NCBI GenBank assembly: GCA_964638215.1
Contig: CAZXBI010000001.1
Location: 3,709 to 45,490, forward strand
Length of the DNA stretch: 41,782 nt
From: an uncultured Syntrophorhabdus sp.
GTDB taxonomy: Bacteria; Desulfobacterota; BSN033; UBA1163
Reading direction: 5' to 3'
The notes below the pieces were generated by a model. It was not told the DNA's origin. It saw nothing but the letters and a program-made list of their open reading frames with translations, and made no database searches. A program made the position numbers and the translations under genes. The first letter of the stretch is position 1; every line of letters begins with the position of its first letter. Positions 1-22,825 of the stretch are shown one piece after another.

Positions 1-49
1 TAATAATGTCAATATTTTTTGATTTTTTTTATAAAAATTAAAAAAAAGC

Positions 50-78
50 TTGACAAACTTTTTCAACTGTAGTATTTT
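50..78 (+). promoter_or_regulatory. Putative sigma-70-type promoter
   Basis: TTGACA at 50-55, a 17-nt spacer, then TATTTT at 73-78. An extremely A/T-rich UP-like tract occupies 1-49. The predicted start site lies just upstream of the riboswitch P1 stem. Confidence 0.4.
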
Positions 79-87
79 AAACCACTA

Positions 88-266
88 AGCTACAGGAGAG
101 ACCCCGAAGAGGGGCGCCGAAGGGGCAAGTTATAAGACGAAACTCTCAGGCAAAAGGACTGTAACTTATTTCAATCCTGGAAAGACCGAGGTGACAAGGC
201 TCGGGCACCGAAGGGGGCAAATCCCGAGTTTATCGAGGGATAATCTCTCAGGTCAAAAGACAGGAG
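88..266 (+). promoter_or_regulatory. Tandem glycine riboswitch (two aptamers)
   Basis: Aptamer 1: P1 is TACAG (91-95) paired with CTGTA (159-163), with conserved GGAGAG, GCCGAAGGGGCAA and CTCTCAGGCAAAAGGAC. Aptamer 2: P1 is TCCTG (176-180) paired with CAGGA (261-265), with GCACCGAAGGGGGCAA and CTCTCAGGTCAAAAGAC. These are the hallmark glycine-aptamer cores, joined by a short linker. Confidence 0.85.
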
Positions 267-308
267 GAAGGACAATCGCATTGAATTGTTCTTCCTCCTT
301 TTTGTTTT
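262..308 (+). terminator. Intrinsic terminator forming the riboswitch expression platform
   Basis: The stem pairs AGGAGGAAG (262-270) plus ACAAT (272-276) with ATTGT (285-289) plus CTTCCTCCT (291-299). It is followed by TTTTTGTTTT. The 5' arm overlaps the 3' strand of aptamer-2 P1, which fits a glycine-ON antitermination design. Confidence 0.75.
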
Positions 309-357
309 GGAGGGTTCATCAATGAAAAGCCTTTTCTGATGGGATGAGGGATAGAGC

Positions 358-1656
358 ATGGGTTTGTATTCAAAAAAAAGTGAACGCATCGATACGGAAA
401 ATGCATTCAAGATCGGGCCTCAGATAAGGTCCATCGAGGAACAAGGGAAAAAGGTGATTAAGTGTAATCTGGGGGAGCCGGATTTTCCTGTCCCTGAGTT
501 TATCAAAGATGAGGTAAAAAGACAGCTTGACCTGGATAATACGCATTATTGTGATCCCCAAGGGGTTCTTTCTCTGCGGAAAGCCATTGCAAAACACCTC
601 AGTGAAACCCGGGGGATTCAAGCAACGGCTGACCGGGTCGTCGTCTTCCCCGGTGCGAAACCTCCCATCGGGTTATGCCAGCAGACCTATTGCGATCCAG
701 GGGATGAGGTGATTTATCCCAGTCCGGGTTTTCCCATCTATGAATCCTTTATTAAATATGTAGATGCCCGACCTTTTCCCATCCATTTGAGAGAAGAGAA
801 AAACTTCACTCTTTCGGGAGAAGATATCCAATCCTTTTTAACGAAAAAGACAAAGATGATCTTTCTCAACTTCCCCTCGAATCCTACGGGAGGGGTAGCC
901 TCCCTGGAACAACTTCGAGATATCGCTGATGTGATCCAAAGGCGAGGTTCAGAGGAGATTCGCATTTTTTCAGATGAAGTGTATGAGGACATTCTTTTTG
1001 ATGGGGCCAAACACCATAGTATCATCTCCTGTCCCGGGATGGAGAAGTTCACCATTTTGGTCAGTGGAGCTTCCAAGAGTTTTTCCTGGACGGGGGGGAG
1101 AATTGGATGGGCCCTCTTTCCAACCCTGGAGGAAGCCGAAGTCTTCAGGAATCTCAATATCAACTATTTCTCCTGCATCCCTCCGTACAATCAGGAGGGT
1201 GCTCGCCTTGCCCTGGAGTCGCCGCTCAGCCAGAATGCTATCCGCAGCATGGTGAATACGTTTCAGGAACGGAGGGGCATTGTCATCGATGGTTTGAATA
1301 GGATCAAGGGGATTCGGTGTCAGAAGCCAAAAGGAGCCTTCTATGTTTTCCCAAACATCGAAGAAGTTTGCAAGAATCTTGGGATTATAGAGGCATTTCA
1401 GAGTCTCCCCCCTGACCTGAGGCAGAGGACGAGCCCCTCAACCCTTTTCCAGATGTTTTTGCTATATGAGTATCAGGTAGCAACCATGGATCGAAAATCC
1501 TTTGGCCGTATTGGAACGGAAAACCTGCATTATTTGCGTCTCTCCTTTGCCACGGATACAGACTCTTTGAAAGAAGGATTGAGGCGACTTTCAATAGCCT
1601 CTCAAGATAAAAAAGGTTTCGGTCAGTTTTTCAAGAAGAGAGAGCATCTTTATTAA
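358..1656 (+). CDS. PLP-dependent aminotransferase, class I/II (aspartate/alanine-aminotransferase-like)
   Basis: 432-aa ORF. It has a typical fold-type I layout with the Schiff-base lysine motif SGASKSFSWTGGRIGW and an N-terminal NLGEPDFP motif. GAGGGA lies upstream of the ATG. Confidence 0.8.
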   Translation: MGLYSKKSERIDTENAFKIGPQIRSIEEQGKKVIKCNLGEPDFPVPEFIKDEVKRQLDLDNTHYCDPQGVLSLRKAIAKHLSETRGIQATADRVVVFPGAKPPIGLCQQTYCDPGDEVIYPSPGFPIYESFIKYVDARPFPIHLREEKNFTLSGEDIQSFLTKKTKMIFLNFPSNPTGGVASLEQLRDIADVIQRRGSEEIRIFSDEVYEDILFDGAKHHSIISCPGMEKFTILVSGASKSFSWTGGRIGWALFPTLEEAEVFRNLNINYFSCIPPYNQEGARLALESPLSQNAIRSMVNTFQERRGIVIDGLNRIKGIRCQKPKGAFYVFPNIEEVCKNLGIIEAFQSLPPDLRQRTSPSTLFQMFLLYEYQVATMDRKSFGRIGTENLHYLRLSFATDTDSLKEGLRRLSIASQDKKGFGQFFKKREHLY

Positions 1657-1715
1657 GAATATTAGGGTTGCGAAACGATACGAGTGAATCATAAAAAAGT
1701 GGAGTATCAAATCCT

Positions 1716-2693
1716 ATGAAATCAAGGGTCTTGATCAGCCAGAAAATCTTTGATGAAGTGGTGGCTATGGTTAGACAGCATTTTGAGGTCGATTGGAACC
1801 AGAGCGAAACGCCTCTCTCCCCATCTGTTCTGATTCAAAGGCTTCGGGATAAGATGGGAGCGATCATTTTGCTCACGGATCGAATTGATGAGGAGGTTCT
1901 CTCCCAATGTTCTGAGCTAAAGATTGTCTCGAATGTGGCAGTGGGATACAATAATATTGATGTTGAGGCCTGTACCCGTCGCGGGGTCATGGTGACGAAT
2001 ACCCCGGGTGTTTTGGATGATACGACGGCGGACTTGACCTGGGCCCTCCTTCTGGCTACCGCGAGGCGAGTCGTTGAGGCGGATCAATTCCTCCGTTCTT
2101 TGAAATGGAAAGGTTGGAAACTCATGGAATTTTTAGGCTACGATGTTCACCACAAGGTCATTGGCATCTGTGGACTCGGACGCATCGGACAGCGCGTGGC
2201 AAGGCGGGCCAAAGGATTTGAGATGCAGATCTTATATACCGACGTTATTCGAGCTGCTCCATCGTTGGAGGAGGAGCTGGGGGCCCGTTTTGTAGACAAA
2301 AAGACCTTGCTGGCAGAGTCAGATTTTGTGACACTTCATGTGCCGTTGACGCCTCAGACCGCGCACTATATCTCTATGACTGAATTTTCGATGATGAAAC
2401 CTACTGCAATTATGATTAATGCTTCTCGAGGTCCTGTGGTGGATGAGAAGGCTTTAGTCCAGGCATTAAAGGAGGGAAAGATCGCAGGAGCAGGGCTGGA
2501 TGTTTATGAAAGAGAACCAGAGGTCGAACCTGAGCTCATTGGGATGAAGAATGTTGTTTTGGCTCCACACATTGCCAGTGCTTCTCGTGAGACACGACTT
2601 CGGATGGCCACCATGGCGGCAGAAAACTTGGTAGCAGGGCTTACAGGAAAACGCCCTCTAAATCTGGTGAATGAGGAAGTGCTGAAATTGTAA
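1716..2693 (+). CDS. D-isomer-specific 2-hydroxyacid dehydrogenase, glyoxylate/hydroxypyruvate reductase (GhrB/TkrA)-like
   Basis: 325 aa. NAD(P) fingerprint GLGRIGQRVARRA. Catalytic-region motifs NASRGPVVDE and APHIASAS. Confidence 0.8.
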   Translation: MKSRVLISQKIFDEVVAMVRQHFEVDWNQSETPLSPSVLIQRLRDKMGAIILLTDRIDEEVLSQCSELKIVSNVAVGYNNIDVEACTRRGVMVTNTPGVLDDTTADLTWALLLATARRVVEADQFLRSLKWKGWKLMEFLGYDVHHKVIGICGLGRIGQRVARRAKGFEMQILYTDVIRAAPSLEEELGARFVDKKTLLAESDFVTLHVPLTPQTAHYISMTEFSMMKPTAIMINASRGPVVDEKALVQALKEGKIAGAGLDVYEREPEVEPELIGMKNVVLAPHIASASRETRLRMATMAAENLVAGLTGKRPLNLVNEEVLKL

Positions 2694-2834
2694 AAGTTTT
2701 AGACCCAAAGGAACTGGGATGATTGATTTAAAAATAGAGCCTCAACGATTTTTTGTAACTTGGTCAATCCATTGTGAATCTGGGATTCTATTCATCCGAA
2801 GCTTATCAAGAAAGCGAAGAAAAAGGAGGAATTC

Positions 2835-3488
2835 ATGAGCAAAGAAATCTACGATAAGTTAAGAGAATGTATTTTGGAGGGAGACGGTGAAGGACTCGTC
2901 AAGGCAACAGAGGCAGGTCTTTCACAAAAGCTTCAACCCATAACGATGATCGATAAGATGACCGAGACGATGAAAGAGGTTGGTCAGAGATTTGAGAGTG
3001 GAGAGTTTTTCCTTCCCGAAATGATCAAAGCGGCAGATGCATGGAAAAAAGCGATGGCGTCCTTGGAGTCCAAGATGAGTGCTGGGGAGATAGCGGAGAT
3101 AGCAAAGAGAAAAGCTGGTCGAATCGTTATTGGAACAGTGCAAAGCGACATCCATGATCTGGGAAAAAACATTGTGATCGCTTTTCTGAAGACGGTTGGG
3201 TTTGAGATCATGGACTTAGGGGTTGACGTTCCAGCATCAAAGTTCATTTCGGCAGCCGAGGAGTTTAAAGCCGATATCATCGGTATGTCTTCACTCCTGA
3301 CCACTTCAATGCCTTATCAAAAATCGGTGATTGAACACCTCACCGCGAGAAATCTGAGAAACAAATATAAGGTGATTGTGGGAGGAGGTCCGGTCAACCA
3401 GGCGTGGGCAGACACGGTCGGAGCCGATGGTTATGCCCGAGATGCAGTTGAAACTGCGAAACTTTGTTCAAGTCTAGTCAAAGGCTAA
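2835..3488 (+). CDS. Corrinoid (cobalamin)-binding methyltransferase protein, MtmC/MtbC/MttC-like
   Basis: 217 aa. It has an N-terminal helical cap followed by a Rossmann B12-binding domain with the His-on motif GTVQSDIHDLGKN (DxHxxG), plus SSLLTTS and VGGGP. A strong RBS (AAAAGGAGG) precedes the ATG. Confidence 0.85.
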   Translation: MSKEIYDKLRECILEGDGEGLVKATEAGLSQKLQPITMIDKMTETMKEVGQRFESGEFFLPEMIKAADAWKKAMASLESKMSAGEIAEIAKRKAGRIVIGTVQSDIHDLGKNIVIAFLKTVGFEIMDLGVDVPASKFISAAEEFKADIIGMSSLLTTSMPYQKSVIEHLTARNLRNKYKVIVGGGPVNQAWADTVGADGYARDAVETAKLCSSLVKG

Positions 3489-3512: not shown

Positions 3513-4913
3513 ATGATTAGTTTCTCTGAAGTGGTCAGAAGGGCTCTAACGGGGCCGATCTGTTTGGAAAAAGAATTCGACATGGAGATTTTTGTCCCTG
3601 AACTGCAACGGGTGGTCAAGAAATATGAGATCAAATATGATCCGCAAAATCCGATTCCTTCCGATGATGCCTTGGCCGACCGTATCTTTGCGGCCGCCTT
3701 TGAATTCTACGCAAAAGTGGGAACATACTGCCTCGACAGCGAAAGAAGAATCCTGTTCACGGAAGAAGAGATCAGAGATGCTCTGGCAACAGCCAATGAA
3801 GGGGTCTGGCTGGGAGAAGGAAATGAACGAAGTTACTTAACATGGAGAAAACCTGAGAGCGACAGAAGGCCTTTCTGCTCGCTGGGGGCAGCAGGTGCCC
3901 CGGTTTCAACGGAGGATATTTTATTTAGAGTCGCGAGAGGTTTTGCCTCCATTCCCATTTCGAATGGAATGACCACCCCTGCCCTTACCATTATGGATGG
4001 CCAACGGACCATGGGAGGGAGCCCTCTGGAGATAGAGGCCTCCATCCGAACCGTCCAACTCGTCCGAGAGGCCTGCCGGCGTGCAGGAAAGCCGGGGCTG
4101 CCCATCATGAATGGAATCGCTACGGCCACGACCGCCACGGCGACCATTGCCGCGAGCCACTTTGGAATGCGCACCACAGATATCTGGGAACTGGGGGCCA
4201 TTGGTGAGATGAAGGTCAATTTCCAGCTTTTGAATAAAGCAGCTTACCTCCAGGCCTGGGGAGGAAACAGCCTTGCGGAAACGGGACCTTCCCTGGGAGG
4301 GTTTTGTGGGGGGCCGGAAGGCACATCGGTTGTCACGACGGCTTACCATCTTCAAGGCATCCTTGTCCACCGTTCGGTGTTCCAGCATCCCTTCACCATC
4401 CACTTCAAGTACCAATGTAACACGGGACGGGACCTGATCTGGGTCTTTGCCACCAGTAACCAGGCTTGCAGCAGGAACAGCCACTGGCCGGTTCTCAGTC
4501 TCATGTACACAGCCGGGGGTCCGATGACAGAAATGTATTTTCACGAGGCCACCGCATGGGTGCTAGCAGCAATCACGGGTGGGACGAATGTTGAGATCGG
4601 CGGCGTGGCAAAAGCAATCAATCCGGATCATCTTACTCCTATCGAACCCCTGTATGCCGGGGAGGTGGCGCTGGCAGCCGCTGGCCAGAAGATGACACGT
4701 AAACAGGCCAATGAGATTGCAAAGGCCCTCCTGCCCAAGTATGAGGATAAGATCAAAGGAGATCCTACGCTGACGATCGGGAAGAAGTATCAAGAACTCT
4801 ACGATATGGATACCTTGAAGCCATGCAGCGCATACGTCGACCTCTATCAACAAATGAAGAAAGAAATCGGCAAGATGGGAGTGAAGTTCCAGTATCATTT
4901 TCCTCTCAAATAA
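3513..4913 (+). CDS. MtmB-family (monomethylamine methyltransferase-like) protein, non-pyrrolysine form
   Basis: 466 aa, colinear with Methanosarcina MtmB as I recall it. Shared stretches include YC.D..RI..(F/Y)TEEEI.DA, AG(K/R)PG, P..GG(F/Y).GG.E.T, GP.TEM, and the C-terminal (F/Y)QE.YD..T..P block. There is no in-frame stop at the Pyl-equivalent site. The RBS AAGGAG precedes the ATG. Confidence 0.75.
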   Translation: MISFSEVVRRALTGPICLEKEFDMEIFVPELQRVVKKYEIKYDPQNPIPSDDALADRIFAAAFEFYAKVGTYCLDSERRILFTEEEIRDALATANEGVWLGEGNERSYLTWRKPESDRRPFCSLGAAGAPVSTEDILFRVARGFASIPISNGMTTPALTIMDGQRTMGGSPLEIEASIRTVQLVREACRRAGKPGLPIMNGIATATTATATIAASHFGMRTTDIWELGAIGEMKVNFQLLNKAAYLQAWGGNSLAETGPSLGGFCGGPEGTSVVTTAYHLQGILVHRSVFQHPFTIHFKYQCNTGRDLIWVFATSNQACSRNSHWPVLSLMYTAGGPMTEMYFHEATAWVLAAITGGTNVEIGGVAKAINPDHLTPIEPLYAGEVALAAAGQKMTRKQANEIAKALLPKYEDKIKGDPTLTIGKKYQELYDMDTLKPCSAYVDLYQQMKKEIGKMGVKFQYHFPLK

Positions 4914-5009: not shown

Positions 5010-5807
5010 ATGGCCACCCGTGAAGAAGTAAGGAAGCTTCATCCAACAGAGATCAGGAAACTTATTCGGAAGGGAGAATGGAAGGGATCCACAGAGGGGT
5101 GCGCATCAGAGTTTGCCCAAGCCAATCTGGCCATTTTACCTGCGAAAAACGCCTTTGATTTCCTTCTGTTCTGTCAAAGAAACCCTAAACCCTGCCCGGT
5201 ATTAGAGGTGACGGAACCGGGAAAATACCTTTTGAAGGACGTGGCTGAGGGGGCCGATATCAGAACGGATCTTCCCCGCTACCGAGTCTATGAGAAAGGC
5301 GAATGCGTTCGAGAAGTTGAGGACATCAAGGACTACTGGAAAGAGGATATGGTCGCGTTTCTCCTTGGATGCAGCTATTCCTTCGAGTGGTTTCTGCTCA
5401 AGTCCAATGTCCGGTTGAGACATATCGAGTTGGGGCAGGTCGTTTCTCTCTATATTACGAACATTGCCTGTAAACCGGCGGGGATCTTTAATGGCCCCAT
5501 GGTTACCAGTATGAGACCCATCCGCAGGGATCAACTCGTTCGTGCTATTCAGATTACTTCCAGGGTGCCTGCGGTTCATGGCGCCCCGATTCATGTCGGT
5601 GATCCCAAGAAGATCGGCGTGGATCTTTCGCGTCCAGACTTTGGCTGGAAGCCTGAAATGGAAGAAGATGATGTCCCTGTTTTTTGGGCTTGCGGTGTTA
5701 CCCCCCAAGCGGTGGCTATGAAGAGTAAGGTCGATTTCATGATCACCCATTCTCCGGGGTTTATGTTTATTACGGATGTTCGATCAGAGGACCTGGCAGT
5801 CTTCTAA
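5010..5807 (+). CDS. DUF1445/UPF0317 putative hydro-lyase (D-glutamate cyclase-like, YcsI family)
   Basis: 265 aa. The N-terminus (R.LIR.GEW.G.T.G......AQANL.ILP...A.DFLLFC.RNPKPCP) is characteristic of the YcsI / D-glutamate cyclase family. RBS AGGAGGG. Confidence 0.7.
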   Translation: MATREEVRKLHPTEIRKLIRKGEWKGSTEGCASEFAQANLAILPAKNAFDFLLFCQRNPKPCPVLEVTEPGKYLLKDVAEGADIRTDLPRYRVYEKGECVREVEDIKDYWKEDMVAFLLGCSYSFEWFLLKSNVRLRHIELGQVVSLYITNIACKPAGIFNGPMVTSMRPIRRDQLVRAIQITSRVPAVHGAPIHVGDPKKIGVDLSRPDFGWKPEMEEDDVPVFWACGVTPQAVAMKSKVDFMITHSPGFMFITDVRSEDLAVF

Positions 5808-5865
5808 ACGACGGGAGAGGTTGCTATGGGTTTGTTATCCCCTTTTCAACAGTGAGGAGAAAAAC

Positions 5866-6735
5866 ATGGAAAGAATGAGTGTTGCTGGTGCTATTGATCT
5901 TCATATCCATACAAATCCGGACTTGATCGATCGTATTGGCGATGACAGGGATATTGTCAGAAATGCCAGAGATGCAGGGATGTTGGGGGTGCAGCTGAAA
6001 GGCCACATGGAAAGCACGGTCAGCCGGGCCTACTTCATGAGCAAGGAATTCCCTGAAGTCAAGGTGTTTGGTGGAATTGTGTTGAACCGCTATGTGGGAG
6101 GGATTAATCCCCAAGCGGTGGAAGCGTCCCTCCGAAAAGGGGGAAAGAGCGTTTGGATGCCTACGGTGGATGCCAATTACCATGCGAAGAAGTATGGAAA
6201 AACGGGGCGCTATACGGTTCAGGAACTCGATGCCAAAGGAAGCGAAGTGGGCATTTGTGTTTTGGATGATGATGGTAAGCTGATCCCTGAAGTCCTCGAA
6301 GTTCTGGACCTCGTCGCCCAGTATGATGCCGTGCTTGGAACGTCCCACCTTTCACCTGAGGAGATCCTAAAACTAATTGACGAAGCCAAAAAAAGAAAAG
6401 TGGAGAAGATCTGTCTGACCCACCCCTTTGTGAAAGTCCCCGGGGTGGACCTCAACTTTTTGAAAGAGGTCATTCCCAAGGGCGTTTTTGCTGAATTCGG
6501 CTACTGCACGATCACTCCCATGTGGGCGGATGCAACGGTCGAGCAGAAAAAGGAGGCCATCAAAGCCTTGGGAGCCGAGCATTGCATCCTCGTTTCAGAT
6601 GGAGGGCAGATCCATAACCCGTGGCCCCATGAGGGGCTTCGGATATTCGCTCAATCCTTGCATGAAAAGGGCATCTTACCGAAGGAGATAGAGACCATGA
6701 TTATCCATAACCCCAGGCAGCTGATGGGGATTTAA
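5866..6735 (+). CDS. TIM-barrel metal-dependent hydrolase (amidohydrolase/PHP-like, DUF6282-like)
   Basis: The ATG at 5866 follows GAGGAG. The N-terminal IDLHIHTNPD metal-binding motif, an internal GTSH and a late LVSDGGQ resemble amidohydrolase-superfamily ligand positions. The longer ORF from 5776 overlaps the upstream gene and is unlikely. Confidence 0.55.
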   Translation: MERMSVAGAIDLHIHTNPDLIDRIGDDRDIVRNARDAGMLGVQLKGHMESTVSRAYFMSKEFPEVKVFGGIVLNRYVGGINPQAVEASLRKGGKSVWMPTVDANYHAKKYGKTGRYTVQELDAKGSEVGICVLDDDGKLIPEVLEVLDLVAQYDAVLGTSHLSPEEILKLIDEAKKRKVEKICLTHPFVKVPGVDLNFLKEVIPKGVFAEFGYCTITPMWADATVEQKKEAIKALGAEHCILVSDGGQIHNPWPHEGLRIFAQSLHEKGILPKEIETMIIHNPRQLMGI

Positions 6736-6742
6736 AAGATGA

Positions 6743-8500
<1,758 letters not shown>

Positions 8501-8530
8501 TAATTCATCCTATGAGTTAAGGAGTTGTCC

Positions 8531-8848
8531 ATGGAAGAGAGACTGATCCATGCGAAAGTTCATCGACATACGCCGGGAGATAAAGAGAAGAGATACGATG
8601 TGTTCAAGGTCCCCCATAGTCTCGGAATGACGGTCCAAATCCTGCTTCGCTATATCTACGAAAATATAGATCCCACGCTGGCATTCAGGGATTATCGGTG
8701 TGGCCAGGGAATCTGTAATACCTGTCAGATCAAGGTGAACGGAAAGGTGATTCGATCATGTGAAACTCCCGTCCAATTAGGGCAGGAGGTTCTTCTGGAA
8801 CCGGCCAATGATCTCGTCATCAAAGATTTGGTCGTTCAGCCTGACTGA
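8531..8848 (+). CDS. Small [2Fe-2S] protein corresponding to the N-terminal domain of SdhB/FrdB only
   Basis: About 106 aa. Cys spacing CGQGICNTCQIKVNGKVIRSC is C-x4-C-x2-C-x11-C, as in the SdhB 2Fe-2S domain. It has no 4Fe-4S/3Fe-4S cysteine clusters. RBS TAAGGAG lies 6 nt upstream of the ATG. Confidence 0.65.
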   Translation: MEERLIHAKVHRHTPGDKEKRYDVFKVPHSLGMTVQILLRYIYENIDPTLAFRDYRCGQGICNTCQIKVNGKVIRSCETPVQLGQEVLLEPANDLVIKDLVVQPD

Positions 8849-8881
8849 ACTTATTCATGTTACCATTCATTTATGTGATAG

Positions 8882-9280
8882 GTCCAACCCTTAGCAAGAG
8901 CGGTTGTCGAAGGAATTAGAGCTTCTGACCCCGAACTGATCTTCACTGGGGTGCCTGGGTTAGTTTCTTATGAGATTGCAAAAAGCCTTGGCCTCAGAGT
9001 GGCTGCACTTATCCCCATTGATTTGGATTTCCATAAGGACGGAAGTTCGATTATCGAAAGAGCAAAACGGAGGAGAGACCCTAATGAAATCGCCCGTAAG
9101 GCATTGAAGCTTGTTACCACTGGAAAGCTGGAAACCATCGACGGGGTGGATAAGGAGTTGAAGGTTGATATTTTGCTGGTTCATGGGGATGGTCCAAATG
9201 CAGTAGAGATTCTGCGAGAGGTAAAATCGGTATTGATCCATAAGGGGGTAAAGGTTGGACCGTTTCCGAATTTCGTATGA
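8882..9280 (+). pseudogene. C-terminal fragment of a LamB/YcsF (PxpA, 5-oxoprolinase subunit A) family gene
   Basis: The open frame from 8882 encodes about 132 aa ending in ...KVDILLVHGDGPNAVEILREV..., the family's conserved C-terminal HGD region. The N-terminal half of the family (the metal-binding region as I recall it) is absent. The only start is a GTG at 8951, with no RBS. Confidence 0.5.
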
Positions 9281-17942: not shown

Positions 17943-18341
17943 ATGGGGATGAATCAGAGAGAGCAGTTTGCATGCATAGGATGTTCCGTATCTAAAGTAG
18001 ATGCCCTCGATAAAGTCCTCGGCAAAGCCGTTTATGCAGAGGATATCTCTTTGCCGAACATGCTCTATGGACGTGTGTTGAGGGTCGGGGTTCCTCACGT
18101 CCTCATCGAGGAGATTGATACCAGCAAGGCCAAAGCGATGAAAGGTGTTGTCTGCGTATTGACAGCCAAAGATATCCCCGGAACGAACCGTTATGGCATT
18201 GCGATCTTGGACCAAGAGGCCTTGGCAGAGAAAAAGGTCCGCTTTGCTGATGAGGAGATCAAGAGAGGAATCTCCGGCAATTTGTGCCGATGTACGGGGT
18301 ATGTTAAGATCATCAGTGCCATCCAGGGCGTTGTTAAATAA
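17943..18341 (+). pseudogene. Chimeric remnant: N-terminal ~100 codons of an XDH-family Mo large subunit fused in frame to the last ~25 codons of a 2Fe-2S small subunit
   Basis: Residues ~15-100 closely match the N-terminus of the 38360 large subunit (DALDKVLGKAVYAEDIS.PNMLYGRVLR.G.PH..IEEIDTSKAKAMKGVVCVLTAKDIPG.NRYGIA). The tail EEIKRGISGNLCRCTGYVKIISAIQ is the C-terminus of a CoxS-type subunit. The junction is near 18250. Confidence 0.75.
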
Positions 18342-21781: not shown

Positions 21782-22825
21782 ATGGCACATAAAAAAGAAC
21801 TAAACGGAAGAGAGCGAGTATTCCGAGCCTTATCCTTTCAGGAGATAGACCGGGTGCCGGTGATCCCGGTGACTCATTCCTGCTCGCCAAAGAAGACAGG
21901 TTACCTTCATGGTGAGGCGATGCAGGATACGTGGAAGTATGTTGAATCCCAGCTCAAGTGCCTTGAGATGTTTGGTTACGATGGCGTCTGGGGCATGGCG
22001 GTGAATGAAGTGGCCGAGGCTCTGGGCTGCGAGGTCGTTGTTCACCCCGACGATGTTCCTGACGAAAGAAACGGCCTTCTGACAAATGAACGGGATCTTA
22101 CCAGGCTTGCAGAACCGGATTTCAATCGATCCATCTGGATGAACCGCAAGGAGGAAGTGGTTCGACAACTTAAGAAGGAAACTGGAAAGCGGGCGGTCGT
22201 TATTGCTCCTGCGATCACTCCCATTCGGGCTGCTGTGATGACGAGAGGAATCCAGAATTTCTTCCTGGACTTCATCGATGCCCCGGGGTTCAGCAAGGAT
22301 CTTTTGGAAATCTGTACTCGCCATTGTATCACCGCGGCCAAGCGCTTGGCTCAATCCGGAGCCGACTTTCTCTTCTTCCCTCTTCCAGAGGCCTCCCGAG
22401 ACATGATTTCAAGAGCCCATTACGAAGAATTCATCCAGCCCTGTATGAAGAAGATCATGAAAGCCATGGAAGATGAGGGGATCAAAACACTCCTTCACAC
22501 CTGTGGAAACTGGAGTGATCGTTTCGGTCTGGCCGCTGGTCTCAAGCCAGACATTATTCAGTTGACCGCAGAGGTTGATTTGAGATCGATTAGAATGGAA
22601 CTGGGGAATAAAATTGGCCTTTTTGGAAAGATTAACTCGGTGGGAACTCTGTTTCAGGGCACGCCAGAGGCCGTGAAAAGCGAAAGCAGGGAGAACATCT
22701 CGGATGCGGACGGAATGCGAGGGGGATTCATTCTCGCATCCGATTGCGCTGTGCCCAGAGATACTCCAGTTGTCAATATTCAGGCGATGGTTGATGCGGC
22801 GCGGGAATTTGCAGAGAGGCAATAA
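21782..22825 (+). CDS. Uroporphyrinogen-decarboxylase-fold methyltransferase (MtaA/MtbA/CmuA or O-demethylase MT-I type)
   Basis: 347 aa. The N-terminus ERVFRALSFQEIDRVPVIP is typical of corrinoid-dependent URO-D-family methyltransferases. Putative Zn ligands are LLHTCGN (H-x-C) and a later SDCAVP. There is no obvious SD sequence. Confidence 0.65.
   Translation: MAHKKELNGRERVFRALSFQEIDRVPVIPVTHSCSPKKTGYLHGEAMQDTWKYVESQLKCLEMFGYDGVWGMAVNEVAEALGCEVVVHPDDVPDERNGLLTNERDLTRLAEPDFNRSIWMNRKEEVVRQLKKETGKRAVVIAPAITPIRAAVMTRGIQNFFLDFIDAPGFSKDLLEICTRHCITAAKRLAQSGADFLFFPLPEASRDMISRAHYEEFIQPCMKKIMKAMEDEGIKTLLHTCGNWSDRFGLAAGLKPDIIQLTAEVDLRSIRMELGNKIGLFGKINSVGTLFQGTPEAVKSESRENISDADGMRGGFILASDCAVPRDTPVVNIQAMVDAAREFAERQ

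Follow-up and report, generated by a model that had tools for sequence, protein, structure and literature searches.

What does a tandem glycine riboswitch control when the genes that follow it are not those of glycine cleavage? The question is raised by a 41,782-nt stretch of DNA from an uncultured Syntrophorhabdus sp. (assembly GCA_964638215.1, contig CAZXBI010000001.1, positions 3,709 to 45,490 of the forward strand), referred to here as the window and numbered from its first letter. Near its start, a riboswitch-like leader precedes a gene for a class-I aminotransferase, AT, and a gene for a D-2-hydroxyacid dehydrogenase, HDH. We propose that the leader is very probably a canonical tandem glycine riboswitch, acting as a transcriptional ON switch, and that it drives AT and HDH as members of a glycine-induced catabolic regulon. 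The basis of this proposal was computed, as follows: membership in the RNA family, the fold, its conservation, the overlap between helix P1 of the second aptamer and the terminator, the families of the two genes, and their recurrent linkage to the riboswitch and to genes of the glycine cleavage system (GCS).

All parts of the leader lie on the plus strand. A promoter-like site of the sigma-70 type spans positions 50–78, with TTGACA at 50–55, a 17-nt spacer, and TATTTT at 73–78 (10 of 12 matches). Aptamer 1, at 83–171, matches the Rfam glycine riboswitch family RF00504 with 69.9 bits (E = 1.1e-12). Its P1 is formed by 88–95 and 159–166 and its P2 by 102–105 and 111–114, with P3, P3a, and P3b inside 116–151. 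A short inter-aptamer linker at 166–174, read from the sequence and the leader alignment, is variable in sequence among the homologues in that alignment. Aptamer 2 extends from 175 to 265 (RF00504 match 167–273, 44.0 bits, E = 2.6e-8). Here, P1 pairs 175–179 with 261–265, P2 pairs 186–190 with 200–204, P3 and P3a lie inside 207–253, and P3b pairs 221–225 with 237–241. The expression platform, an intrinsic terminator at 262–309, consists of a 15-bp hairpin at 262–299, followed by UUUUUGUUUUGG, with the U-tract at 300–309. The hairpin has an energy of −21.9 kcal/mol, the 53-nt segment around it has a z of −4.7 against shuffles, and it is the sole strong terminator-like site within positions 1–3000 of the window. 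The original prediction, which was made from the letters of the sequence, had placed two aptamers, a linker, and a terminator in this leader, and every one of them is present. It had also proposed a covariance-model scan as a check; in that scan, RF00504 matches both aptamers above its gathering score of 32 bits.

The score of aptamer 2 was obtained by scanning 165–320 on its own, and the Rfam scans of the whole window listed aptamer 1 and not aptamer 2. In the window scan, a lower-scoring match that overlaps another of the same clan is dropped. Since this removal operates within clan CL00125, and since a match to the tandem model RF03166 covers both aptamers of a close homologue, L052 (L-numbers denote loci of relatives from our genome and metagenome scans), the omission of aptamer 2 is probably a side effect of overlap handling and not a sign of absence. 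RF03166, the glycine-GGAnGA variant, was itself considered and rejected, as the L052 leader, 88% identical to that of the window, scores 73.7 bits, where the gathering score is 110. Across the 41.8 kb, no Rfam family other than the glycine riboswitch attains its gathering score. The claim that the leader is the only recognizable regulatory device of the stretch is thus borne out in the sense that it is the sole RNA element recognizable by Rfam.

The position of the terminator suggests how the switch would work. Bases 262–265 are common to the 3′ strand of aptamer-2 P1 and the 5′ arm of the terminator, since P1 pairs 175–179 with 261–265 and the terminator hairpin spans 262–299; this sharing had been read correctly from the sequence. 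When the native aptamer helices are imposed during folding with ViennaRNA, the energy comes to −65.9 kcal/mol for the full-terminator state and to −57.9 kcal/mol for the state with aptamer-2 P1 closed, i.e., the terminator is favored by 8 kcal/mol. With P1 closed, a stem of 11 bp and −12.5 kcal/mol remains, located 4 nt from the U-tract, and this residual stem is, by the folding model, predicted to be a poor terminator. Given that the terminator state is the more stable by secondary structure, the default state would be OFF, and the ON state would need ligand and tertiary contacts. The fold agrees with the published view that glycine binding stabilizes aptamer-2 P1 against an alternative stem-loop or terminator (PMC5066625). 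Of the two aptamers, the first is the better conserved, as has been reported for GCV-type ON switches (PMC6944388).

We suggest the following series of events. Transcription from the TTGACA/TATTTT promoter would start a few bases before aptamer-1 P1. When glycine is absent, bases 262–265 would join the 15-bp hairpin at 262–299, and RNA polymerase would halt at the U-tract, at about 300–309. When glycine is bound, the aptamers would dock and the P1 of aptamer 2 (175–179/261–265) would be held. The held P1 would take away the base of the terminator and part the remaining stem from the U-tract, and transcription would continue. The controlled unit would be at least the bicistron of AT (358–1656) and HDH (1716–2693), whose products would carry out an amino acid to 2-oxo acid to 2-hydroxy acid step, draining carbon from the glycine pool.

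The leader and its placement are conserved among relatives. In a scan of one genome per species, AT orthologues with 53–88% identity were found in metagenome-assembled genomes (MAGs) of Thermodesulfobacteriota/Syntrophobacterales, NC10, Gemmatimonadota, Acidobacteriota, and others. RF00504 matches lie immediately 5′ of the AT gene in L001, L002, L005, L009, L020, and L027. Closer relatives come from metagenomes: L050, L052, L053, L056, and L058, in which AT is 92–95% identical, have leaders that contain the terminator and the cores of both aptamers, and the leaders of L050, L052, and L053 align with that of the window at 88% identity. The distance from TTGACA to P1 is constant in seven of the eight homologous leaders compared (including L002, L005, L009, L020, L027, and the leader L001a), and likewise in L057.

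Conservation of the structure was examined with 12 distinct homologous leaders and an aptamer structure of 45 pairs. In this alignment, 94.3% of the cells are paired, and the value falls to 33–53% when the partners are slid by one to three columns. Compensatory changes, affecting both sides, occur in five pairs; AU/GC changes of this kind are found in P1 and P3b of aptamer 1, and compensatory changes are present in P2 of aptamer 2, whose P1 is paired in 100% of cases. The three-way junction of P1, P2, and P3/P3a/P3b is supported by covariation in both aptamers, and RNAalifold yields the same helices independently. None of the 12 leaders lacks the terminator, in which 90.4% of the cells are paired, and all 12 share an arrangement in which a short linker joins the two aptamers and one platform overlaps aptamer-2 P1. 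A check, confined to motifs, of the A-rich internal loop of P3a, which in tandem glycine riboswitches serves inter-aptamer A-minor contacts, found GGGGCAA invariant in aptamer 1 of the 12-leader alignment and a motif of the CAAA/AAAA type in aptamer 2. As judged from sequence comparison, the assignment of the window RNA to the tandem glycine riboswitches of RF00504 is confirmed. The fold, the conservation across the 12 leaders, and the folding energies also agree with the standard tandem glycine-ON design that had been predicted.

From the position of the promoter, we place the probable transcript start near 84–86, 3–4 nt ahead of P1. As so few nucleotides would precede P1, a leader–linker helix seems unlikely, and the leader is probably too short to form one. 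An inspection for leader–linker complementarity (a P0 helix with a kink-turn), done by eye only, found none that was consistent. Between the terminator and the AT start, a five-codon mini-ORF (open reading frame), ATGAAAAGCCTTTTCTGA, lies at 322–339 behind GGAGGG. L002 and L057, both close relatives, have it unchanged, and it is missing from L001, L005, L009, and L020. We considered it as a conserved element and set it aside as probably fortuitous, being kept in close relatives only.

AT, the first regulated gene (358–1656, plus strand), encodes a class-I, AspAT-Ib-like, pyridoxal phosphate-dependent aminotransferase of 432 amino acid residues that matches PF00155 (Aminotran_1_2) with 176 bits (E = 1.5e-51). 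The best solved structures are 1dju, 1gd9, and 1j32, which include AspAT-Ib and aromatic aminotransferases (E of about 1e-57 to 1e-55). The motifs SGASKSF, with the lysine that holds the cofactor (SxSK), PSNPTG, with the NPTG asparagine, and LRLSFAT, with the C-terminal arginine that serves the alpha-carboxylate, align with those of the three structures. An insertion of about 20 residues, at residues ~338–361, is specific to the family and missing from the solved relatives. The family is a large one, with more than 7,800 homologues at E ≤ 1e-60.

HDH, the second regulated gene (1716–2693, plus strand), encodes a D-2-hydroxyacid dehydrogenase of 325 residues, of the glyoxylate/hydroxypyruvate reductase (GR/HPR) type, with matches to PF02826 and PF00389 (E = 6e-61). 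Along its whole length, HDH shares about 50% identity with the Pyrococcus glyoxylate reductases 6bii, 5aov, and 2dbq (E = 5e-99 to 3e-93). Its motifs for the catalytic Arg, Glu, and His, namely SRGPVVD, YEREP, and APHIASA, correspond in the alignment to ARGKVVD, FEEEP, and TPHIGSA of these structures. HDH stays below the cut-offs of the NCBIfam equivalogs, at 414.3 bits against 455 for the glyoxylate reductase model NF009714 and at 297.6 against 492 for GhrB. Pfam, NCBIfam, and structure matches together uphold the reading of the first genes as a class-I aminotransferase and a GhrB/glyoxylate-reductase-like dehydrogenase.

The census of loci that carry the same riboswitch lineage bears directly on the opening question. 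A metagenome scan with a 33-nt pattern, comprising the 3′ part of aptamer 2 and the 5′ arm of the terminator, gave 80 loci, 69 of which could be classified by BLAST to reference proteins and by Pfam. In 35 of the 69, the riboswitch is followed by a ParB_N gene and then by gcvH-gcvPA-gcvPB-lplA-lpd-lipA, either complete or ended by the contig. An HDH orthologue, 76–83% identical, comes first in nine loci; the ParB_N gene is next in eight of these, and five of the eight reach gcvH before the contig ends. AT is first in 13 loci, five of them with the order AT-gcvH, four with AT-HDH, and four cut, and it is second in two more, after a ParB_N gene or an unidentified ORF. The remaining cargoes are gcvT or a fusion of GcvT with serine hydroxymethyltransferase (SHMT) in three loci, a 137-residue protein of unrecognized type in another three, and, in one locus each, a TRAP transporter, an operon of Tdh-like, creatininase-family, and Kbl genes, an octopine-dehydrogenase-like gene, and an unidentified ORF. 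In L005 and L020, the order is riboswitch-AT-gcvH-gcvPA-gcvPB-lipoyl ligase, and L008 has AT-HDH-lipoyl ligase-lipoyl synthase without a riboswitch.

From this recurrent presence of AT and HDH, both in riboswitch loci of the same lineage and in GCS operons, it follows that they are accessory members of a glycine/GCS regulon. In uncultured Thermodesulfobacteriota/Syntrophobacterales-like MAGs, the two genes belong, by gene neighborhood, with the glycine cleavage and lipoylation genes to one predicted glycine regulon. The original prediction had held that the riboswitch controls the two genes instead of the glycine cleavage system. That is correct for the window locus and fails for the lineage, in which 35 of the 69 loci drive GCS operons. 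Nor does the notion of AT and HDH as an alternative to the GCS stand, as orthologues of each are found as the first gene of GCS operons.

Further observations concern the other genes of this lineage. The ParB_N-domain protein (PF02195, about 140–175 residues) is the usual first gene of the riboswitch-led gcvH-gcvPA-gcvPB-lplA-lpd-lipA operons, as in L066, L143, and about 45 others. A GcvT-SHMT fusion (GCV_T, GCV_T_C, and SHMT domains) lies behind the riboswitch in L099, as an 897-residue ORF 119 nt past the riboswitch pattern, and in L141; such a fusion suggests that methylenetetrahydrofolate may be channeled into serine. In L001, positions 192–3270 contain two back-to-back glycine riboswitch units. 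The first riboswitch (192–293) precedes a Peptidase_M20 gene (abgB-like), a DUF5058 gene, and a 244-residue ORF, and the second precedes AT-HDH.

Several points weigh against the proposal that the window carries a working ON switch for AT and HDH within a glycine regulon. Because the census used one exact pattern and mechanical ORF calls, its sample is biased, and its counts show occurrence and not frequency. Against the NCBIfam equivalogs, AT passes no cut-off, with a best score of about 228 bits and cut-offs of 415–575. About 24 of the 30 best-matching AT loci in the genome scan are without a riboswitch, from which it follows that the AT family is not dedicated to glycine. The sequence of aptamer 2 (GGAAAG, GGUCAAAAGAC) deviates from the consensus, and its score, 44 bits, is the lower one. 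From the DNA, we infer where the transcript starts, how far the operon extends, that glycine binds and turns the switch ON, and which substrates are used. Finally, one strain, with an AT of 91% identity, carries a decayed riboswitch copy as its leader (L054 9717–10000 and L055 823–1106). This leader has mutations in the core of aptamer 1, has lost the 3′ end of aptamer 2 as well as the terminator by deletion, and gives no Rfam match at E ≤ 0.001. As L054 and L055 keep AT-HDH behind the decayed leader, riboswitch control is dispensable in some strains, and in these two loci it appears to have been lost recently.

As an RNA, the element adds nothing new, being a well-preserved, classical tandem glycine ON switch; what it controls is another matter. 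The obvious comparison is with the tandem glycine riboswitch of the Bacillus subtilis gcvT-gcvPA-gcvPB operon, reportedly described by Mandal et al. in 2004. The two switches share a pair of aptamers, a short linker, one platform, and a terminator that competes with aptamer-2 P1 in a glycine-ON design, and in the window, too, aptamer 1 is the better conserved, in keeping with GCV-context switches (PMC6944388). They differ in cargo, which in the window is a class-I aminotransferase and a GR/HPR-type dehydrogenase and not gcvT/gcvP, and in host, which here is an uncultured Thermodesulfobacteriota-like bacterium. They differ also in the leader before P1, which in the window is probably too short for a leader–linker helix. 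A second comparison is with SAR11 (Pelagibacter), in which, as summarized in PMC5069720, a glycine riboswitch acts on the malate synthase gene glcB. There, too, a glycine riboswitch is tied to a glyoxylate-consuming enzyme and not to the GCS alone, but the enzyme is malate synthase, the organism is a different one, and there is no aminotransferase/reductase pair.

The RegPrecise glycine-riboswitch regulon comprises grdABCDEX, glyA, abgB, gcvTHP, gcvB, sdaA, serA, serC, and transporters (PMC3766115), and metagenome work has added phosphoserine aminotransferase and malate synthase to the targets. This regulon resembles the present lineage in placing catabolism and transport genes under tandem glycine riboswitches, including an abgB-type M20 peptidase, as found behind the first riboswitch of L001. 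The curated list of PMC3766115 has no class-I aminotransferase, no GR/HPR, and no ParB_N gene. Full-text searches of the searchable literature found no publication that pairs a glycine riboswitch with glyoxylate reductase and none of relevance for hydroxypyruvate reductase, and the literature retrieved for glycine riboswitch, glyoxylate, and aminotransferase does not describe the AT-HDH arrangement. The AT-HDH cargo is apparently undescribed, yet it extends the known regulon in a logical way. In uncultured, mostly anaerobic bacteria of sediment and groundwater, the picture of the regulon is widened from the GCS and lipoylation genes to AT, GR/HPR, the ParB_N protein, and the GcvT-SHMT fusion. 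For an abundant family of aminotransferases, the riboswitch gives a functional lead that points to the catabolism of glycine or serine, and it may be used as a label when AT-type genes are annotated.

Which reaction would the pair carry out? The route that we tentatively put first, by a narrow margin, runs through serine: the GCS and SHMT would make serine from two glycine, AT would turn serine into hydroxypyruvate, and HDH would reduce the latter to D-glycerate, which would enter central metabolism. Such a route corresponds to that half of the C2/serine pathway which leads from glycine to glycerate. This route accords with the other cargoes, for the riboswitches of the lineage also drive the GCS genes for the H, PA, and PB proteins, the lipoylation genes, gcvT, and the GcvT-SHMT fusion, with AT and HDH occurring among them, and L008 places AT-HDH directly before lipoyl ligase and lipoyl synthase. 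It is at odds with the known serine:glyoxylate and serine:pyruvate aminotransferases, which belong to class V and not to class I. Serine dehydratase genes near the loci L050–L058 also offer an alternative exit for serine. The regulon, for its part, matches the set of C2-pathway enzymes, namely GCS, SHMT, a serine:2-oxoacid aminotransferase, and HPR (PMC11032457). The archaeal enzymes PH0597, PF0319, PYCH_09300, and TK0683 are reported to reduce both glyoxylate and hydroxypyruvate and to prefer the latter; in a later study, they are considered to be hydroxypyruvate reductases (PMC11032457).

Ranked after the serine route, and likewise held with less than even confidence, is a direct disposal of glycine that would save nitrogen. 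AT would convert glycine to glyoxylate, with 2-oxoglutarate or pyruvate as the acceptor, and HDH would reduce glyoxylate to glycolate, a plausible route that the original prediction had proposed. The sensed ligand would then be the direct substrate, and both the best NCBIfam model and the best PDB entries for HDH carry the name glyoxylate reductase. Reduction of glyoxylate would pull a transamination that is otherwise unfavorable. On the other side, glycolate is a dead end unless it is excreted or reoxidized, and this scheme gives no explanation for AT or HDH standing alone inside GCS operons. Class-I aminotransferases of the Thermococcales (Thermococcus litoralis AGT, TK0186, and TK1094) act on glyoxylate/glycine, but the nearest characterized homologues of HDH are the hydroxypyruvate-preferring enzymes just mentioned (PMC11032457). 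The Thermococcales have the same two enzyme families as the window, with HDH about 50% identical; their enzymes, however, are archaeal and not controlled by a riboswitch, and the direction proposed for them is from glyoxylate to glycine, in 2-phosphoglycolate salvage (PMC11032457).

The flanking genes do not discriminate between the two routes. In the examined flanks of the riboswitch-AT/HDH/GCS operons, neither a glycerate kinase, which counts against the serine route, nor a glycolate-handling gene, which counts against the direct one, was found. Those flanks contain Lpd, LipA, a patatin-like protein, UPF0047, threonine aldolase, an SDF symporter, an M20 peptidase, and a binding protein.

A separate matter is how far the controlled transcript extends. 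HDH is followed by a 141-nt spacer (2694–2834, plus strand) that is unstructured (folding z = +1.44). Beyond it, Pfam identifies a corrinoid protein (MtgC-like, 2835–3488, plus strand) and a full-length, non-pyrrolysine methyltransferase of the MtmB family (3513–4913, plus strand). The MtmB gene of the window has no in-frame TAG, and an Asn aligns with the pyrrolysine position of Methanosarcina barkeri MtmB. Among non-pyrrolysine MtmB proteins, MtqB, which acts on tetramethylammonium and choline, is the sole one with a demonstrated function (PMC13044021). The riboswitch locus also flags this neighboring cluster of a non-pyrrolysine MtmB.

One alternative has read-through extending into the corrinoid protein, MtmB, and further catabolic and transport genes, in which case glycine would induce corrinoid-dependent demethylation. 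We regard this as possible and rather doubtful. All the genes are on the same strand, and neither a terminator-like hairpin nor a strong promoter was called in the gap at 2694–2834; as the gap has no terminator, read-through across it is possible. Two relatives, L002 and L054, also have same-strand transporter or flavoprotein genes after HDH. In a syntenic MtmB cluster, L059, whose MtmB is 80% identical to that of the window, an AT paralogue (54% identical to the AT of the window) stands directly 5′ of the corrinoid protein-MtmB pair. That cluster, however, has no HDH and no Rfam match, being the only one of the MtmB clusters that was scanned, and the clusters L060–L062 have neither AT-HDH nor a riboswitch context. 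A comparison of the HDH-corrinoid spacer of the window with the AT-corrinoid spacer of L059, in which a shared promoter or recombination scar was sought, found no meaningful similarity.

The layout of the close relatives also speaks for a shorter unit. In L050, L052, L053, L057, and L058, a divergent AsnC/Lrp regulator is followed by riboswitch-AT-HDH and then by convergent genes, from which it follows that the conserved unit is the AT-HDH bicistron. Elsewhere, the genes 3′ of HDH differ: L001 has a TRAP transporter, L002 a Liv-type ABC transporter, L054 a flavoprotein together with an ABC transporter, and the window the corrinoid/MtmB cluster. The corrinoid protein-MtmB pair is absent after AT-HDH in L001, L002, L050, L052, L053, L057, and L058. 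We therefore prefer the bicistron as the riboswitch-controlled unit, with the corrinoid protein and MtmB as possible cargo of read-through and, by gene order, not a conserved part of it.

It is tempting to go one step beyond the extended operon and propose a product-activated, feed-forward loop. MtmB, expressed by read-through from the riboswitch, would take the methyl group from an N-methyl amino acid, for instance sarcosine, and so yield glycine, which would be inducer as well as product; AT and HDH would remove the glycine. That downstream enzymes may generate glycine had been suggested in the original prediction. We consider this improbable. If it were true, the locus would offer an anaerobic, corrinoid-dependent route, under an RNA switch, from compounds of the N-methylglycine type to central metabolism.

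Least likely is that the element is a relic, decaying or without function, and that AT-HDH is really under the AsnC/Lrp-type regulator of the relatives, for while an AsnC-family gene lies divergently upstream in L050 and L052–L058, and L054 and L055 hold AT-HDH without a riboswitch, the window has all conserved core nucleotides, helices, and the terminator intact, the riboswitch elements are under evident purifying selection across the 12 leaders, and protein and RNA controls are compatible with each other. With the riboswitch taken as functional, the regulator gene deserves a note of its own. In L050, L052, L053, and L056–L058, an AsnC/Lrp-family regulator is divergent from the riboswitch promoter, and the window begins right at that promoter. 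Dual control by protein and RNA is possible.

Some minor observations concern the MtmB neighborhood. A methyltransferase like MtaA/CmuA is encoded 17 kb further along, at 21782–22825 of the window. At 5010–9280 of the window, and in L059 and L060–L062, the MtmB homologue is accompanied by a conserved gene set comprising a D-Glu_cyclase-like hydro-lyase, DUF6282, an FrdA-like flavoprotein with Fer2_3, molybdoenzymes of the XDH type, and UbiD. In L060 and L061, the set also has hydantoinase A/B proteins, one of them fused to a D-Glu_cyclase domain. The set looks like an uncharacterized pathway, anaerobic and acting on an N-methylated compound that may be a lactam, a heterocycle, or an amino acid. 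Two short ORFs of the window match only parts of larger families. The 109-residue ORF at 8951–9280 matches the C-terminal part of LamB_YcsF only, and the 132-residue ORF at 17943–18341 contains fragments of Ald_Xan_dh_C and Fer2_2; both may be pseudogenes, frameshifts, or assembly errors.

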